64,000 bases of DNA from Minisyncoccota bacterium (GCA_041663185.1 JBAZQY010000001.1:117298-181297); one strand, 5' to 3'; shown: positions 4,567 through 61,887, counted from the first letter of the stretch. Notes: generated from the letters alone by a model not told the origin. Numbers and translations are program-made.

Positions 4567-5649
4567 TTAAAACATTTGCTCTAATGATTTAGGATTAATA
4601 GAAAATTCATAAGCACTCTCGAGACTTATTTCTCCCCTCTGCACAAGATCAATCAGACATCGGTTCATATCAACCATCCCTTCATGGGACGAAGTTTCAA
4701 TGACGACATCGATCTCATGGGTTCTTTTTTCACGAATTAAATTGGCAATCGCTTTGTTATTGATCAAAAGTTCATAAGCGGGAATACGCCCACCGGCAAT
4801 CCGCGGAATTAAACGTTGCGAGAATATTCCAAGCAAACTTGAAGCGAGCTGTAAACGAATCTGGCCTTGTTGTTCGGCGGGGAATGAGTCGATAATACGA
4901 TCAATAGTTTGTGAAGCATTGTTGGTATGCAGAGTTGAAAGGACCAAGTGCCCCGTCTCAGCAGCTGTCACCGCAGCGGCGATGGTTGATGGATCACGCA
5001 TTTCTCCAATTAAAATAACATTGGCATCTTCACGGAAAGTTGACTTCAGAGCTTTCAAAAAATCATCCGTATCAATACCAATTTCACGTTGATTGATGAT
5101 TGATTTGTCGGGCTGATAGATGAATTCAATAGGATCTTCGATCGTCATAATGTGTGCTGCGGTTTGTGTATTGATCATATTAATCATCGTAGAGAGGGTT
5201 GTTGATTTACCTTGTCCGACTGGCCCAACAACAAGAAAGAATCCTTGTTTTTTCATAGTGAAATCTTTAAGGATCATCGGTAAATTTAATTCTTCAAATG
5301 ATTTAGCTTTAGGAATTAGCCGGATAGCGATGCAGACGAGCCCACGCTGAAAGAAAGCATTGCCTCGGAGTTGAACTTGACCATCTTTCAAATTACTCGA
5401 GAAATCAACATCCTTGTTTTCGATAAATTTCTTGACTCTTTCGCTGCCAATCAATTCCTCTAAAAGACCAAGCACATCATCTTCAGTCATAACTTTATGG
5501 TTAACCAAAGAGATAAGTTGGCCATTTACTCGGATGTATGGTTTGCGCCCGATACCAAGATGCAAATCTGAGCCATCTTCATTGATCAGGTTTTCAATTA
5601 ATTCATTGAGTAATTTTTTATATTCCATATTAGTTTTTGTGTGCGTCAC
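4567..5649 (-). CDS. pilT: Twitching-motility retraction ATPase PilT
   Basis: Walker A GPVGQGKST. The PilT-type motifs IEDPIE and ...GGRIPAYELLINN... are present. Confidence 0.8.
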   Translation of the reverse strand: MTHTKTNMEYKKLLNELIENLINEDGSDLHLGIGRKPYIRVNGQLISLVNHKVMTEDDVLGLLEELIGSERVKKFIENKDVDFSSNLKDGQVQLRGNAFFQRGLVCIAIRLIPKAKSFEELNLPMILKDFTMKKQGFFLVVGPVGQGKSTTLSTMINMINTQTAAHIMTIEDPIEFIYQPDKSIINQREIGIDTDDFLKALKSTFREDANVILIGEMRDPSTIAAAVTAAETGHLVLSTLHTNNASQTIDRIIDSFPAEQQGQIRLQLASSLLGIFSQRLIPRIAGGRIPAYELLINNKAIANLIREKRTHEIDVVIETSSHEGMVDMNRCLIDLVQRGEISLESAYEFSINPKSLEQMF

Positions 5650-11597: not shown

Positions 11598-11629
11598 GCA
11601 TGAAAATTTTTAATTAAAAATTTTCATGC
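11598..11629. promoter_or_regulatory. 32-nt perfect AT-rich palindrome (candidate operator or terminator)
   Basis: gcatgaaaatttttaa|ttaaaaattttcatgc lies between the comFC stop and the ATP-grasp gene start. tattatac follows it. Confidence 0.4.
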
Positions 11630-21653: not shown

Positions 21654-21657
21654 ATTG

Positions 21658-21731
21658 TCCGCCTGCTACGATTCGAACGTAGGACCCTCGAGGTATAAGC
21701 TCGATGCTCTAACCAACTGAGCTACAGGCGG
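21658..21731 (-). tRNA. tRNA-Ile with anticodon UAU (AUA decoder)
   Basis: Acceptor CCGCCTG/CAGGCGG, D-arm GCTCAGTTGGTTAGAGC, anticodon arm TCGAG-CTTATAC-CTCGA, and T-arm CTACG-TTCGAAT-CGTAG. Confidence 0.75.
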
Positions 21732-26116: not shown

Positions 26117-26416
26117 ATGCTACTCTTAAAGAAACTTAAAAAAATGGGAACACTGGAACCACTTAGTAGACGCACTCGCCTACTCTGGATGTATAATACT
26201 CTTATTCATCCACACCGTATCAAAATAATAATCGTATGTTTTGATTCTCGTGATAAAGCACTATATCCCTGTCATTTATCTCGTGACCAGGATGTTGAGA
26301 AAAAAATAAACAATATTTCAATCGAAACTCCAAATGTAATCATCATTGAGGTTATTGATTTGGATAAAGAACCGTTTGATGTATTCGATATGTTCGAGCT
26401 TGAAAATTTTTACTAG
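26117..26416 (+). CDS. Hypothetical protein
   Basis: 99-aa ORF followed by a bidirectional hairpin at ~26443-26480. Confidence 0.35.
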   Translation: MLLLKKLKKMGTLEPLSRRTRLLWMYNTLIHPHRIKIIIVCFDSRDKALYPCHLSRDQDVEKKINNISIETPNVIIIEVIDLDKEPFDVFDMFELENFY

Positions 26417-26510
26417 TAAAAATTTTCAAGCTCTTTTTTTATTACCAAAATTAAAAATTCCCACACCGAGTGTAGGAATTTTTAATTAAATAAATCTTTG
26501 TATTAAACAA

Positions 26511-45128: not shown

Positions 45129-45749
45129 TTACTCTTTGTATTTATAACCCTCTTCATAATCCTTGAAACCAAGATTCATATTTCTCCAGTTAAACGCTGG
45201 ATAGTAGTCGAGGAGGTTAGGATCTTCCGTACTGGCCAGGTTTTCAAGTCGGTAATCAATCAACCGGCCGGCTTTTTCAGTAAAATCATCAGCATTCCGG
45301 AATTCACGGTACTTGGGAAGATGTGCGCCGGAGGCCCCTTCATAATCAGCAAATACAAACTGGTGCATTATTATCTTAGTTGAATCATTGCTAAGATAGA
45401 AAAAAATGTTTTGGGTTAATTCACCATCGGAATAATAATCATTATCTACATCATACTCATAAGCGAGTCCACTTGTTGTTTGATGACCTCCAAGTTCAAG
45501 CTCGAGTAAATTCCATTCAGTGAATCGGCGATGGATATCGCGAACGTTTATTACTTCTGTCGAGTCCGCAACATAATAATTACTATCATAAAGGACCTGT
45601 GCCCTGGAGATGATTTCTTCCATGGCATTAGCCAACTCTTTTTTACTGGATTGTGGGTTGTTTCCGAACATAATCCACCAGAACAATAATCCGGCTACAA
45701 TACAGGCTACAATACAAGCAATTAATCCTACAAATGTTGTTGTTTTCAT
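45129..45749 (-). CDS. Hypothetical membrane-anchored protein inserted within the ribosomal-protein cluster
   Basis: N-terminal TM (TTFVGLIACIVACIVAGLLFWWIMF). It has its own promoter and leader at 45750..45915 and its own terminator. Confidence 0.5.
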   Translation of the reverse strand: MKTTTFVGLIACIVACIVAGLLFWWIMFGNNPQSSKKELANAMEEIISRAQVLYDSNYYVADSTEVINVRDIHRRFTEWNLLELELGGHQTTSGLAYEYDVDNDYYSDGELTQNIFFYLSNDSTKIIMHQFVFADYEGASGAHLPKYREFRNADDFTEKAGRLIDYRLENLASTEDPNLLDYYPAFNWRNMNLGFKDYEEGYKYKE

Positions 45750-45915
45750 AGTGTTTTGTTTTTTAAAATGAGTGAATAGTGAATTACCTTAAGCTACTAA
45801 ATGTCTAATAATTCAAGGCAATTCACTATTTCTCCTCAAAACAAAAATTATGAAAATTTTCAAAGAACTAAACACTCCTTATAGTATAGCATAATTGGGT
45901 AAAAAAGTCAAGAGA
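45750..45915 (-). promoter_or_regulatory. Conserved promoter + ~130-nt structured 5' leader, copy 1
   Basis: Minus strand: TTGACT-N17-TATACT, then a leader with hairpin gaaatagtgaattgcc...ggtaattcactattc. It is 85-90% identical to 46529..46700. Confidence 0.6.
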
Positions 45916-46003
45916 TTTAACCTGACAAAATAAGGACTTTTTGCAATAAAAAAGACCTGCCAGAAATTCTGACAGGCCTTGAAGTTTGGGATTATTTGCA
46001 ATA

Positions 46004-46528
46004 TTATTTATCCCACCATGGCAAATATTCGAAAAAAATCGTTTGATATCCTCTTCTTCCTTCGACTTTTACGATAATGTCACCAACCGACCATTGATTA
46101 TTTTTAAAACAAATATACGGTGTTGTTTTTTCGCCAGAGTCATAGTCGATACCCAAAAATTGGTCATAATTATAACCGATAATCCGGTTGTAATCGAGGA
46201 AAAGCGACCTATGTTTCATGGCTATAAGTGATTTCAGATCGCTTTTCTTGGGCAAGGTGTAGTTCATATACTCAGCAAATTTTAATACCAACCTTTGGCT
46301 GGTATGCTTTTTGAATGAGTATATTATACAGGTCCTGAACGTTCCACCTTGACCAATATTTGGTGTAATCTCCGATATACTATCTCCGGAAAGGAAAACG
46401 GGTTTTTCCCAGTAAAAATGTCGGTTGAATTTACGTTCAATCCGTGTCTGCTGAGCGCTGGCTGATGATGTGGCAACAATCATCATGATGATGATTGCAA
46501 AGAATGAGAATAATCTAACATTTTTCAT
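46004..46528 (-). CDS. Hypothetical secreted protein inserted within the ribosomal-protein cluster
   Basis: Start at MKNVRLFSFFAIIIMMIVATSSASA (signal peptide). The listed ORF start at 46642 extends into the conserved leader. No similarity to the neighbouring inserted protein. Confidence 0.5.
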   Translation of the reverse strand: MKNVRLFSFFAIIIMMIVATSSASAQQTRIERKFNRHFYWEKPVFLSGDSISEITPNIGQGGTFRTCIIYSFKKHTSQRLVLKFAEYMNYTLPKKSDLKSLIAMKHRSLFLDYNRIIGYNYDQFLGIDYDSGEKTTPYICFKNNQWSVGDIIVKVEGRRGYQTIFFEYLPWWDK

Positions 46529-46700
46529 AATAATATTTGTTTTTAAATTGTGAGTGAATAGTGAATTACCTTGAGCTATTAAATGTCTAATAATCCAGGG
46601 CAATTCACTATTCTTTAAAACAAATATTATGAAAATTTTCAAAGAACTACATACTACTTATAGTATAGCATGATTAGGTGTAAAAGTCAATAGATAAAAC
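46529..46700 (-). promoter_or_regulatory. Conserved promoter + structured 5' leader, copy 2
   Basis: Minus strand: TTGACT-N17-TATACT with a near-identical leader hairpin to 45750..45915. Confidence 0.6.
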
Positions 46701-46727
46701 CCTTTAATTGCAAGCTTATTAATGAAA

Positions 46728-46765
46728 TAGCCCCGCCGACAGCTGTCGGCGGGGCTATTTCATTT
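46728..46765. terminator. Strong intrinsic terminator downstream of rplE
   Basis: aaatagccccgccgacagc|tgtcggcggggctattt is a 17-bp GC-rich stem followed by T-runs. Confidence 0.7.
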
Positions 46766-47950: not shown

Positions 47951-48208
47951 TTAAATTACTTTAAAATGCTTATCTTTCGATATTGGCTTTGTTTCTTCTA
48001 TTTCGACGACATCTCCAATTTTTTTAATATTACCTTCATCATGAGCCTTGTATTTCTTTGTCTTTTTTATGCGTTTACCATATTTCTTGTGCTCAACAAA
48101 GCGGGAAACTTTAACAACCACAGTTTTATCCATTTTGTCTGAGACAACTACTCCTTTTAGAACTTTATTTGTTTTTTTGTTTTGTTTTTCCATAATTTTA
48201 TCGAGCAA
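47951..48208 (-). CDS. rpsQ: 30S ribosomal protein S17
   Basis: ...[21 protein letters not shown]... S17 OB-fold. It directly follows rplP with no rpmC (L29) between. Confidence 0.85.
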
Positions 48209-48614
48209 CCACCCGAGTAGTAACTGGTAATTTTGTTCCGGCTTTTCTTAGTGCTTCTTTGGCTGTTACTTCTGGAACTCCATCGACTTCAAATATTATC
48301 CTCCCTGGTCGAATATCTAAACAATATCCTTGTGGGTCTCCTTTACCTTTTCCCATTCCAACCTCAGCTGGTTTTGCAGTAAAAGGTCTATCAGGGAAAA
48401 TTCGAATCCACATCCTGCCAGTCTTACCAAGAGTTCGGGAAGTAACTTTACGGGCTGATTCTATCTGATTTGAACGAATTCGTCCACCAGAAGTTGCTTT
48501 CAATCCAAATGCCCCAAATGAAATTGTTGTTCCACGTGTATCAGGAGTCACCTTTGTCATATCGGTGCGTCCTGTTTGCCATTTTCTAAATTTTACTTTT
48601 TTGGGTACTAACAT
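48198..48614 (-). CDS. rplP: 50S ribosomal protein L16
   Basis: [14 protein letters not shown]... conserved L16 N-terminus. Confidence 0.9.
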
Positions 48615-49324: not shown

Positions 49325-49735
49325 TTAATCTTTAGATTCTAATTTTTTAACTGGCTTTGTTTTCTTTCCTCGACCCGCCGTAACCTTGGCGGAGGTAGCC
49401 TTCTTGGCTAATACTTTTTCGATCAAAGTTAGCATAACATGACTGGTGCGTTTATTAATACGGGAAGCACTTCCACGAGCTCGTGGCATTGAACGCTTTA
49501 GAACAATCCCTTTATTAACTGTAACATTTTCAACAAAAAGGTCATCCTCTTTGATTCCAGCTTGTTTGGCATTTGAAATAGCTGAAGCAAGTAACTTCAT
49601 AACAGGTAGAGATGCTCTTTTAGGCAAAGTATCCAATATTAAAATTGCCTCAGCAACCCTTTTGCTTTTGATGAGTTCCGCTACAAGGCGAACCTTGCGG
49701 GGGGACTGTCTGTAATTTTTTAAAAATGCTTTCAT
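49325..49735 (-). CDS. rplV: 50S ribosomal protein L22
   Basis: MKAFLKNYRQSPRKVRLVA... conserved L22 N-terminus. Confidence 0.9.
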   Translation of the reverse strand: MKAFLKNYRQSPRKVRLVAELIKSKRVAEAILILDTLPKRASLPVMKLLASAISNAKQAGIKEDDLFVENVTVNKGIVLKRSMPRARGSASRINKRTSHVMLTLIEKVLAKKATSAKVTAGRGKKTKPVKKLESKD

Positions 49736-50018
49736 TGTTGTGTATTTAACTATTTTTCTTCTATCTTGCTCGTTGAGACTATAACTAATTTTTTAAAAAT
49801 GCTTTCATGGCTGATTTTTAAGGAGTGAAGCGACTTTATAAATCGTCACCCCGTGAAATAACATTTGCAAACTATTTTATAATTATTCTACCTTTTTAAT
49901 ATGCTTACCTCCATAATATTCCCTACCCTTGTGCCACCTTTTTGCAAATGTTCTTTTGTAAACAAAAGATTTCACAGGGGTAAGGAAAATCATATTCGCT
50001 CTGCTCATTGATTTTCAC
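49736..50018 (-). promoter_or_regulatory. Atypical 283-nt spacer between rpsS and rplV with a long-range hairpin and a duplicated rplV start region (7-codon uORF)
   Basis: A 23-nt direct repeat taattttttaaaaatgctttcat occurs at 49713..49735 and 49786..49808. A long-range pairing joins ccccgtgaaat...aacatttgcaaa (49847-49870) with tttgcaaatgtt...atttcacagggg (49937-49979). Confidence 0.5.
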
Positions 50019-50360
50019 TTATTTCTTCGATTCGGTAGCAGCTTTGGCTGACTTGGCTGCGGATACTTCGGCTTCTTTTTTCTTCATCTCAAGTTCTTTC
50101 TGCATTTTACCTCCGTGTCTGACGAACTTGCGGGTTAGTGAGAATTCTCCCAATCTGTGCCCAACCATATCTTCACTTATTAAAACTTCAACATGGGTTT
50201 TACCATTATGAACACCAAAAACAAATCCTACCATTTCTGGAGAAATCTGACATGCTCGTGACCAGGTTTTAATCATCCCTGTTTCTAGGGGCTTTTTCCC
50301 AGCTATCTTTTTCAAAAGACGAGCATCGACGTATGGACCTTTTTTGAGTGATCTTGTCAT
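50019..50360 (-). CDS. rpsS: 30S ribosomal protein S19 (with Lys/Ala-rich C-terminal extension)
   Basis: [14 protein letters not shown].....G... conserved S19 core. Confidence 0.9.
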
Positions 50361-50548
50361 CCCGTTAGAGATAGGAAGTCCTTAGACTTCCGTGTATTGT
50401 TAAGTATGGTTGATAATATAAAACTTATATTTGATTATTAACTCCGTGAGAATATAACATGCATATCTCTAACGGGATCATAACAATATAAATAAGCTCA
50501 ACTGAGCTCGTTCGTCCATACTATCAAATATAAATATAAAGTCAATGT

Positions 50549-50941
50549 TTATAAAAATCCAATTATTTTGGGTAAAAAAATTATAAGCCCTATAAAAGCA
50601 GCTGTAGCGGCAGAAATTAAAACCGCTCCTGACGCAACATCTTTTGTATCGCGAGCATACGGATGATAATTGGGGCTTGTTAGATCAATATCAATTTCAA
50701 TAGCGGTATTAAGCGCTTCGGTTATTAATACAAGCCCAATAGCTAAAATGAGAAAAAGCCATTCTATAAGTGACACTTTTAATATAAAACCAAATAAGAT
50801 AACAAATATGGTAATGATGAGATGGACCCACAAGTTATGAGTACTTTTTACCAATATACCAATTCCACGAAATGCATGATTAAAACTTTTAGCACGAGCC
50901 ACAATTGAAAATCTTTTTTTCTCTGATAGTTTTTGTTCCAT
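50549..50941 (-). CDS. dgkA: Diacylglycerol kinase / undecaprenol kinase family (DgkA-like) membrane protein, inserted between rpsS and rplB
   Basis: Start at MEQKLSEKKRFSIVARAKSFNHAFRGI.... There are three TM helices and a conserved EALNTAIE motif. Confidence 0.6.
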   Translation of the reverse strand: MEQKLSEKKRFSIVARAKSFNHAFRGIGILVKSTHNLWVHLIITIFVILFGFILKVSLIEWLFLILAIGLVLITEALNTAIEIDIDLTSPNYHPYARDTKDVASGAVLISAATAAFIGLIIFLPKIIGFL

Positions 50942-50976
50942 TTTCTTATTATACATCAAAAAATGGTTCCCTGTAT

Positions 50977-51018
50977 ATGTGTAACACTTGCAGACGGCCG
51001 TCTGCAAGTGTTACACAT
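50977..51018. promoter_or_regulatory. 42-nt perfect GC-containing palindrome upstream of dgkA
   Basis: atgtgtaacacttgcagacgg|ccgtctgcaagtgttacacat (symmetric about 50997/50998), 36 nt upstream of the dgkA ATG. Confidence 0.6.
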
Positions 51019-51039
51019 TAGATTTTATCTATATTAATA

Positions 51040-51075
51040 AAAAACAAAACCACCCAAATATCGGGTGGTTTTGTT
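51040..51075. terminator. Bidirectional intrinsic terminator downstream of rplB
   Basis: aaaacaaaaccaccc-aaatatc-gggtggttttgtttttt. Confidence 0.65.
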
Positions 51076-51077
51076 TT

Positions 51078-51929
51078 TTATTTTGCGTTTTTGTTTTTAC
51101 CTACTTTTCTACGAGTGACAATCCACATATTTGAATATTTCTTTGGTGTTCGTGTCTTCTGTCCTTTACCAGTTGGTTTACCCCACATACTTTTCGCTCG
51201 TCTGATTCCACGGCCTTGTCGTCCTTCACCTCCACCGTGTGGATGATCAACTGGGTTCATGGCAGTTCCACGGACAGTTGGTCTTATTCCCTTCCAGCGA
51301 CTTCGTCCTGCTTTACCAAAATTTTGAAGTTTATATTCACTATTTGAAACTTCACCAATACAAGCATAACAATTTTCAGAAACTTTTCGTATTTCAGTAG
51401 AAGGCATTTTAATGTTTGTATATCCAAGGTCGTTTGCCACTACCTGCCCAAAAACTCCAGCAGAACGTGCGAGCTTGGCCCCATTGCCTGGTTTAATTTC
51501 TATATTATAAACAAATGTTCCGATTGGAATGATTTTAAGAGGTAATCTGTTTCCAACTGAAAGTGAAGCTTTATCTCCTATTATAAAACTATCTCCGACT
51601 TTCATTGATTTAGGAACTACAACATATCTCTTTTCTCCGTCAGCGTAACAAACCAAACTTATGAACGCATTGCGATTTGGGTCGTATTCAATTGAGGTTA
51701 TCTTGGCAGGAATATCACGCTTGTTGTACATAAAATCAATCTCGCGATAGAGACGTTTATGTCCACCTCCTTTATGGCGAGTTGTGATGCGTCCTTGATT
51801 ATTTCTTCCAACCGAACGTTTGAAGCCACGAGTTAAAGATTTTTCAGGGCTTCCCTTGGTTAACACACCACGGTATGAAACTGTAGTGTGGTGACGTTTT
51901 GATGGAGTTGTAGGTCTATATGTTTTCAT
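51078..51929 (-). CDS. rplB: 50S ribosomal protein L2
   Basis: 283 aa with ...HPHGGGEG... L2 signature. Confidence 0.9.
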   Translation of the reverse strand: MKTYRPTTPSKRHHTTVSYRGVLTKGSPEKSLTRGFKRSVGRNNQGRITTRHKGGGHKRLYREIDFMYNKRDIPAKITSIEYDPNRNAFISLVCYADGEKRYVVVPKSMKVGDSFIIGDKASLSVGNRLPLKIIPIGTFVYNIEIKPGNGAKLARSAGVFGQVVANDLGYTNIKMPSTEIRKVSENCYACIGEVSNSEYKLQNFGKAGRSRWKGIRPTVRGTAMNPVDHPHGGGEGRQGRGIRRAKSMWGKPTGKGQKTRTPKKYSNMWIVTRRKVGKNKNAK

Positions 51930-61031: not shown

Positions 61032-61058
61032 ATATAGCGAAGTCCGACTTCACTATAT
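61032..61058. repeat. REP-like palindrome immediately 3' of the RAYT-like gene
   Basis: atatagcGAAGTC-c-GACTTCactatat. Confidence 0.6.
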
Positions 61059-61790
61059 CTATTCCATATCTAAAATAACCTCTTGTGGTAAATTTTCATT
61101 ATTTTTTAAATTAAATGATTCAATCCAATTTAAAATTTCCTTTTTCTGTTTTTCTTCACCCCCTAATCTATGTAATAAAAAATCTTTTTTAATTATCGAT
61201 GGAAAATTTTTTTGACCAACATAGTCCAAATAACTGCTCCATCTGTATTTATTCAAAAAATCAATAGCTTTTTCGAGATCATTAATTTTTCCCTCTCTCC
61301 ACTCTTTAAATTTATAATCAAGCGGATTTAAGTGGATATATATCGGTAAATACATCAAATGTGAATCTTTTTTTAGATTGACTGATTTAAATTTCCCCTG
61401 AAAAAGTGCCCCAGTTCTTTCATATTTTTTATTAAAATAATTTGTATATCCAGTTCCTAATTTCCGCATGAATTCTGTAATTCCATTTTCTGTCTTTTGT
61501 CTAACCATCAAATGAAAATGATTATCCATCAAACAATAAGCCAAAATCTCCACCAATACTTCCCTAGGTTTTCTCGTAATATTAGGAAGTCCGACTTCCT
61601 TAAGTTTATTATTTTTTGACTTGAGGTATAAAGCTAAGTTAATTGTTGGGTTCTTATCATTAAACTCAAATAAATCGTGAACGAAGCGAAATCTATCATC
61701 GTCATCCATGAAAATATTGCGTTTATCTACACCTCTATTATAAATATGATAGATTTCTCCAAAAACTAAATGTGTTTTTCTTAATGACAT
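61059..61790 (-). mobile_element. RAYT-like Y1/HUH transposase-like protein (REP-associated tyrosine transposase family)
   Basis: YHIYNRG, DDDDRFRF, HUH motif YCLMDNHFHLMV, then ...GTGYTNYFNKKYERTGALFQGKFKS...IYIHLNP, matching the family signature. An internal REP-like palindrome lies at 61582..61603. Confidence 0.6.
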
Positions 61791-61816
61791 AATTGTATTA
61801 TATCACCAAAAACAAA

Positions 61817-61841
61817 CTATAGGAAGTCGGACTTCCTATAG
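61817..61841. repeat. REP-like perfect palindrome immediately 5' of the RAYT-like gene
   Basis: ctataGGAAGTC-g-GACTTCCtatag. Confidence 0.65.
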
Positions 61842-61887
61842 TTTTAAATTTGACCGCGAAGACACTTTATAGTAGTATTTATTTTGT

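Follow-up and report, generated by a model that had tools for sequence, protein, structure and literature searches.

A 42-nt perfect palindrome between rplB and dgkA in the S10-type ribosomal protein cluster of a Candidatus Paceibacterota bacterium

Organization of the cluster and the embedded dgkA gene

The stretch of DNA analysed here (64 kb, hereafter the window; about 10% of the genome) carries on its minus strand an S10-type ribosomal protein cluster in the order tuf, rpsJ, rplC, rplD, rplW, rplB, dgkA, rpsS, rplV, rpsC, rplP, rpsQ, rplN, rplX, rplE (Table 1). The record of an identical dgkA protein places the host in Candidatus Paceibacterota (CPR/Patescibacteria). The S10 cluster is otherwise near-universal, and the window shares both the ribosomal genes and their order with the E. 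coli-type operon (rpsJ-rplCDWB-rpsS-rplV-rpsC-rplP-rpmC-rpsQ). Unlike that operon, it is split after rplB by a terminator, embeds a non-ribosomal membrane kinase gene with its own predicted promoter, has a second strong promoter and a leader before rpsS, and lacks rpmC between rplP and rpsQ; these differences are conserved in a clade of Paceibacteria. Instead of rplB leading directly into rpsS within one unit, a terminator, dgkA and two predicted promoters lie between them, in the window and in 25-29 related species, and the arrangement of these signals suggests that in this clade the cluster comprises at least two, and functionally three, transcription units. A conserved S10 split with an embedded dgkA was not found in the searchable literature; it is a variant of the gene insertions and internal promoters known from ribosomal protein clusters. 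At 47951-48614 rplP is followed directly by rpsQ with no room for rpmC (L29), as in the gene calls of three relatives (L002, L005 and L008), and L29 in this clade is either encoded elsewhere or lost.

Table 1. Features of the rplB-rpsS region and the RAYT-like gene, with positions in the window.
Feature	Position	Strand	Evidence
rplB (ribosomal protein L2), which closes the upstream transcription unit	51078-51929	-	PF00181 E 5e-35, PF03947 E 6e-51, ORF list
Bidirectional intrinsic terminator of rplB	51036-51082	.	Hairpin, pattern and fold analysis
42-nt perfect palindrome	50977-51018	.	Sequence read, pattern search, repeat finder
Predicted dgkA promoter, -10 box TATAAT preceded by TTTTTTGATG	50948-50953	-	Promoter scan
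dgkA-family gene (130 aa, prokaryotic diacylglycerol/undecaprenol kinase)	50549-50941	-	PF01219 (DAGK_prokar) E 2.9e-33
Predicted rpsS promoter: TTGACT, 16-17 nt spacer, TG-extended TAGTAT (TGnTAGTAT)	50518-50545	-	Promoter scan
rpsS leader hairpin GAGCUC-N4-GAGCUU, then U-rich AUUUAUAUUGU	50484-50509	-	Flagged terminator-like
MITE-like inverted-repeat element T-CCCGTTAGAGAT ... ATCTCTAACGGG-A, 118 nt	50360-50477	-	Empty-site comparison, repeat finder
rpsS (ribosomal protein S19), with which the ribosomal genes of the downstream unit begin	50019-50360	-	PF00203 E 2.9e-32
rplV	49325-49735	-	ORF list and profile search
RAYT-like Y1 transposase gene	61059-61790	-	PF01797 E 1.7e-8; NCBIfam REP_Tyr_transpos below cutoff

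The gene between rplB and rpsS had been described as dgkA-like in a preliminary description of this DNA made from the sequence alone, and the profile search bears this out: its product scores 114 bits against PF01219 (cutoff 22.3) and covers positions 2-102 of the 102 in the profile. Alignment with E. coli DgkA structures shows that the ExxNxAIE...D...KD catalytic residues are preserved [for 3ZE4, tEaLNtAIEidiD...rdtKD against vEiLNsAIEavvD...grAKD]; the catalytic and Mg-ATP residues of the E. coli enzyme we take to be E69, N72, E76, D80, K94 and D95. With E ≤ 1e-5 the protein has 3358 homologues, and those named among the best 120 of them come mostly from Paceibacterota/Nomurabacteria. An NCBIfam equivalog search with the dgkA product gave no match. 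DgkA homologues of Gram-positive bacteria are undecaprenol kinases, including that of the Firmicute ybeY-dgkA-era arrangement. The window resembles the latter in having a DgkA-family gene beside ribosome-related genes in a cell-wall-bearing, non-proteobacterial lineage, but differs in that the neighbours are genes of structural ribosomal proteins and in the gene's own, apparently leaderless-type promoter. By analogy, it is plausible that the product is an undecaprenol kinase.

The probable start of dgkA is the ATG at 50941, which gives the 130-aa protein of the public records. A 152-aa reading frame that opens at a TTG inside the palindrome (position 51007) was rejected; its N-terminal extension is unconserved and the public call is 130 aa. 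The -10 box ends 6 nt upstream of the ATG and there is no Shine-Dalgarno sequence. The same arrangement, TTTTTG(T/A)TGTATAAT/TATACT, then ~6 nt and the ATG, again with no Shine-Dalgarno sequence, recurs in most syntenic and several non-syntenic relatives, and in most of the syntenic ones it is preceded by the T-run of the rplB terminator or of the terminator of an inserted upstream gene. Over-extended public gene calls display this promoter string as a pseudo-peptide, 'FLLYN', and spacers of 7-8 nt between -10 box and ATG in some relatives speak against a coding role for this string. Since a conserved -10 box stands ~6 nt from an ATG without a Shine-Dalgarno sequence, we infer that the dgkA mRNA is leaderless, starting at or beside the ATG. 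The locus is useful for CPR gene calling, as the true dgkA start is easily mis-set inside the palindrome.

In a synteny scan of one genome per GTDB species (69 loci), rplB upstream and rpsS downstream of dgkA were found within 5 kb in 25 loci; four more are cut by contig ends, so that the rplB-dgkA-rpsS order holds in 25-29 of the 69. Six metagenome homologue clusters (71-78% DgkA identity) all place dgkA beside rplB and/or rpsS. DgkA identity among the syntenic relatives ranges from 52 to 78%, and in a rough neighbour-joining tree of DgkA the loci with synteny group in a single region, a few nested exceptions aside. The neighbourhood of more distant homologues consists of a cupredoxin-like gene, dgkA, and then thioredoxin-like and DsbB-like genes. 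This distribution indicates that dgkA moved into the ribosomal cluster long ago and has been retained since. The preliminary description, which regarded the S10 operon as almost always contiguous, was correct that dgkA interrupts it, but the gene is a conserved resident and none of its other hosts examined has the palindrome. A large Paceibacteria clade would thus have stably re-wired the S10 cluster into separate units, with an embedded lipid-carrier kinase gene of the leaderless type, and the locus should be useful for studies of operon evolution and as a synteny marker.

The rpsS promoter begins 4 nt past the dgkA stop codon. As no terminator lies between dgkA and this promoter, dgkA transcripts probably read on into rpsS. 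Promoter and leader of rpsS are kept almost base for base in ~30 related loci, and the leader hairpin shows G·U and compensatory variants in distant members of the clade. The leader has no Shine-Dalgarno sequence and resembles an attenuator or terminator; it might serve the autoregulation of a ribosomal protein.

The rplB-dgkA spacer and the palindrome

The rplB terminator has a 20-bp perfect stem and a 7-nt loop with an A-run and a T-run on both sides, and it overlaps the rplB stop codon. The strong bidirectional terminator of the preliminary description is real, although it extends over 51036-51082 and not 51040-51075. All relatives examined have an equivalent hairpin after rplB. From rplB to dgkA the spacer measures 136 nt in the window, compared with 43-67 nt in seven relatives (L002, L010, L013, L015, L035, L057 and L060), where it consists of terminator and promoter and the T-run passes straight into TTTTTGTTGTATAAT-N6-ATG. 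The window has the T-run twice, bracketing a segment of ~76 nt that holds the palindrome. This segment has no clean inverted ends beyond the palindrome itself, the relatives show an 'empty' spacer, and it looks like an insertion into the spacer between terminator and promoter.

Relatives with longer gaps have other, unrelated GC-rich hairpins at the palindrome's place: several GC-rich stems in L011, one long stem in L038, and in L042 a 21-nt palindrome present twice plus another hairpin. In relatives, variable genes also fill 0-4.4 kb of the gaps flanking dgkA; they include genes for an LRR/PG-binding protein, GTP cyclohydrolase II with OMP decarboxylase and a DUF559 endonuclease, as well as unknown ORFs. 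Because relatives carry unrelated hairpins or whole genes there, the gap between terminator and promoter is permissive and recurrently colonised. Small GC-rich palindromic repeats were also seen around dgkA (L042 ~4740-4990, L011 ~4760-4990, L008 4415-4568) and upstream of rpsS (L008, L023 and L033), examples being GCCACAGGTCSGACCTGTGGC, in two copies, and hairpins of the GGGGAGGGG/CCCCTCCCC type; the gaps flanking dgkA seem to be general landing sites for small palindromic elements. A ACGGCCGT centre shared with a palindrome upstream of dgkA in L041/L042 was dismissed as coincidence, the arms being unrelated.

The palindrome consists of ATGTGTAACACTTGCAGACGG followed directly by CCGTCTGCAAGTGTTACACAT; it is 100% self-complementary and has no spacer, on which a reading of the sequence, a pattern search and a repeat finder agree. 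Dinucleotide shuffles (n = 100) gave no palindrome match, even with 3 mismatches allowed. Both its existence and its uniqueness in the window, as first described, are confirmed: the half-site with up to 3 mismatches matches only the palindrome's own two arms. Exact scans for the 21-mer half-site in GTDB representative genomes (one per species) and in JGI metagenome contigs gave no match, as did blastn against plasmids and phages; in 772 kb of related loci a search with up to 5 mismatches returned only two sites with 4-5 mismatches (L023 and L057), which are taken as chance. The palindrome is absent from all orthologous rplB-dgkA gaps of relatives. At the gathering threshold Rfam finds only tmRNA and tRNAs in the window and no family for the palindrome, and a permissive scan of 49700-51100 yields only generic hairpin look-alikes (miRNA precursors, attenuator leaders) far below threshold. 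Two further candidates were set aside. An informal comparison with known operator consensus sequences (CRP, LexA, cre, parS, BirA, DnaA box) gave no convincing match, and for a pair of abutted IS or MITE terminal repeats there is no full-length partner and no clear target duplication.

As RNA the palindrome folds (about -31 kcal/mol) into a stem of 19 bp capped by a GGCC loop; 8 of the 19 pairs are G-C, as expected of the GC-rich stem-loop of an intrinsic terminator. On the minus (sense) strand it is trailed by AUAUACAGGG and the sequence continues as AUAUACAGGGAACC, so that the U-tract of such a terminator is missing; on the plus strand it is followed by TAGATTTTAT, and only this orientation passes the terminator pattern. 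The whole rplB-dgkA spacer folds into three strong hairpins (z = -12), and in read-through RNA the dgkA AUG is paired within the last one; dgkA should therefore depend on its own promoter. Perfect-stem hairpins of at least 12 bp number 16 in the window, of which six have stems of 18-22 bp, and hence the perfect 42-mer is not exceptional among them. Most of the 16 have the A-run/GC-core/T-run form of bidirectional terminators. The palindrome stem (19-21 bp) is without the A-run and T-run shoulders seen on most of the others, and it is distinguished by having no U-tract on the sense strand.

A start-codon element and a RAYT-like gene

The gaps between dgkA and rpsS (190 nt) and between rpsS and rplV (283 nt) both exceed those of relatives because of further small insertions. 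In the first, a MITE-like element has entered exactly where the conserved leader meets the rpsS ATG; ~30 relatives have the site without it. The old ATG (50481-50479) now opens an 18-codon upstream reading frame, whereas the present rpsS ATG (50360-50358) uses the terminal A of the element. A copy of the element occupies the dgkA ATG in another species (L005, 3880-4001), and loci L079-L197 carry it as well.

A metagenome scan for both element ends 80-110 nt apart returned at least 120 stretches, and 124 unique copies, taken from the matches listed, were analysed as a family. Members measure 105-131 nt and have a 13-bp inverted repeat, Y-CCCGTTAGAGAT...ATCTCTAACGGG-R, and a 4-bp TNNA target duplication. 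Complementary bases flank the 12-mer, extending it to the 13-bp repeat, in 119 of the 124 copies, and the target duplication is exact in 69/124 (commonest TGAA, TGGA and TTGA). An ATG or GTG abuts the 3' end of the element in 78 of the 124 copies and the opposite end in 16, a preference for start codons in one fixed orientation. Copies abutted by ATG number 70, and most of these open long reading frames. The ATG is rebuilt from the terminal A of the element and the duplicated TG, and the duplicated upstream ATG begins a short reading frame, MNPVRD.... Of the 123 copies with a length of 100 nt or more, 81 have beside the 3' repeat a perfect hairpin of variable sequence, which in the rpsS element (50375-50390) is GAAGTC-N4-GACTTC. 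The element has no Rfam family (scan of 49700-51100) and its sequence was not found in the literature searched, which also had nothing relevant on MITEs in CPR. If confirmed, it would be an unusual mobile element in that the gene it enters stays expressed.

Palindromes that contain a matching hairpin, GAAGTC-S-GACTTC, occur at the RAYT-like gene upstream (61814-61844), internally (61586-61598) and downstream (61039-61051). Beyond this gene, the only GAAGTC/GACTTC hairpin of the window is the subterminal one of the rpsS element, 11 kb away.

A second inverted-repeat element, CCCCTGTGAAAT...AACATTTGCAAA // TTTGCAAATGTTATTTCACGGGG (49849-49980, minus strand), fills much of the rpsS-rplV gap; it has no second copy in the 1.58 Mb of loci retrieved. 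The first 23 nt of rplV (ATGAAAGCATTTTTAAAAAATTA) are present twice, 73 nt apart, on the minus strand (49786-49808 and 49713-49735), the upstream copy reaching a stop after 7 codons. In nucleotides this 23-mer is almost invariant even among relatives with a DgkA identity of only 52-78%, suggesting a constraint at the RNA level at the start of rplV.

Interpretation of the palindrome and further palindromic features

The preliminary description proposed two explanations for the palindrome. The first is an operator for a dimeric transcription factor; in the form considered here the factor would be dimeric or tetrameric and would control the dgkA promoter, for which the palindrome would be well placed, spanning about -36 to -77 relative to the predicted dgkA start with perfect dyad symmetry directly upstream of the promoter, and it is GC-richer than its surroundings. 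Some known operators are equally long, such as the BirA bioO site, a 40-bp palindromic operator, which the palindrome resembles in length, dyad symmetry and position just upstream of a promoter. However, the orthologous dgkA promoters of more than 25 species have the same -10/ATG geometry without it, the searches above gave no other half-site in the window, only two poor matches in related loci and no exact copy in GTDB or JGI data, and there is no candidate regulator. Usual operators are shorter and imperfect, and the long ones are also only approximately symmetric; perfect hairpins of the same length at other places in the window are clearly terminators, and a promoter of the extended -10 type needs no activator. 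An operator is thus improbable, the proposal having gained no positive evidence from the ~10% of the genome covered or from the relatives, although a regulon or a small repeat family elsewhere in this genome is conceivable. The other proposal, that the palindrome is left over as a relic from the recombination or insertion by which dgkA entered the cluster, would account for the palindrome's position at the rplB-side border of the dgkA segment, but the position of dgkA is ancient and common to many species, none of which has the palindrome, and a perfect 42-nt palindrome would not survive the divergence seen among these lineages (DgkA identity down to 52%). An artefact of assembly or amplification was also considered, since inverted junctions can arise in metagenome assemblies; against it, the palindrome lies mid-contig within an intact, collinear gene cluster, and an independent public ENA assembly (L001, a 212-kb contig and so of another length) is identical base for base over 12.3 kb, palindrome included, so that an error of a single assembly is unlikely. 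Relic and artefact are both effectively ruled out.

The main rival to the reading we prefer, with which it overlaps, is that small palindromic mobile DNA of the REP/REPIN or MITE kind left the palindrome behind as an orphan copy or scar that has no function and is tolerated because the gap is neutral. In its favour, a RAYT-like Y1 transposase gene with hairpins of its own on either side is present in the genome, two or more further small inverted-repeat elements are located no more than 1.2 kb from the palindrome, REP-like palindromes occur in the equivalent gap of relatives, and a copy of the terminator T-run stands on each side of the inserted segment. Yet a second copy of the 21-mer was found nowhere searched, the palindrome has no similarity to the RAYT-associated hairpin GAAGTC-S-GACTTC, and there is no clear target-site duplication, the flanking AT being indistinguishable from the palindrome itself. 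We regard a purely neutral orphan as possible, though rather unlikely.

Our preferred reading, to which we give a probability of about one half, is a lineage-specific hairpin insertion in the gap between terminator and promoter, any function of which would most likely be structural, at the RNA level. The rpsJ-rplB unit would end at its bidirectional intrinsic terminator; dgkA would follow under its own -10-only promoter, with transcription starting at or beside the ATG to give a leaderless mRNA, and rpsS and the later genes would be transcribed from their own consensus promoter through the conserved leader. The ~76-nt segment with the palindrome would have entered the short spacer between terminator and promoter, a spot that tolerates extra DNA. 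If functional, the palindrome would form a very stable hairpin in RNA that reads through from rplB, or alternatively in antisense RNA leaving the symmetric -10 region of dgkA, stopping that RNA before rplB; as an auxiliary terminator or a structure protecting 3' ends, it could help to insulate the two units. Across the clade, it has no part in placing or controlling dgkA.

Among known systems, the palindrome resembles intrinsic (Rho-independent) terminators in being a stable, GC-containing stem-loop after a highly expressed gene, and tandem terminators in adjoining a canonical bidirectional one, but it differs from intrinsic terminators in its longer stem and in the absence of shoulders and of a sense U-tract. 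This last point speaks against an insulator, in that the palindrome is not a canonical intrinsic terminator. That it is only the second hairpin of a tandem terminator, which the preliminary description had named as the outcome that would overturn its proposals, is closer to the data apart from the same missing tract. REPs stabilise upstream mRNA and attenuate read-through, and the palindrome is, like REP/REPIN sequences, an extragenic palindrome of the 35-45-nt class after a gene end in a genome that encodes a RAYT-like protein; REPs are repeated by definition, whereas the palindrome is single-copy wherever searched and unrelated in sequence to the hairpins flanking the RAYT-like gene. It would work most like an accessory terminator or a REP-type hairpin, yet it falls outside both families because it has no sense-strand U-tract and is not repeated. 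The perfect 21+21 symmetry exceeds what an RNA hairpin needs and could reflect a very recent origin or a function at the DNA level. On its own the palindrome matters little, being one more stable hairpin with nothing that ties it to regulation.

More tentatively, the breaks in the cluster may be landing pads for palindromic mobile DNA, including the apparently undescribed family of start-codon MITE-like elements, with the 42-nt palindrome as an orphan of the same traffic; the gaps that arose from the re-wiring of the S10 cluster would then collect small mobile hairpin elements.

Further palindromes occur downstream in the cluster. Between rplE and rpsN (45700-46765, minus strand) lie two paralogous genes with no Pfam match, both with a near-identical consensus promoter (TTGACT...TGCTATACT) and a structured 5' leader of ~130 nt that contains inverted repeats (46556-46613 and 45775-45830). 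Ahead of both paralogues, directly after the rplE stop codon, is a palindrome of 44 nt (46721-46764), perfect and without a spacer, which is one of the 16 perfect-stem hairpins. AT-rich perfect palindromes that share TGAAAATTTTTA occur at 11598-11629, 26396-26433, ~46640 and ~45860, and a 12-nt palindrome, TGAAAATTTTCA, is found in both cassette leaders of the rplE-rpsN paralogues; these sequences are a possible recurring protein-binding motif. Elsewhere in the window, a tRNA-Ile with anticodon TAT (21657-21731, minus strand) is uncommon for bacteria, in which AUA is usually read by a modified CAT anticodon.
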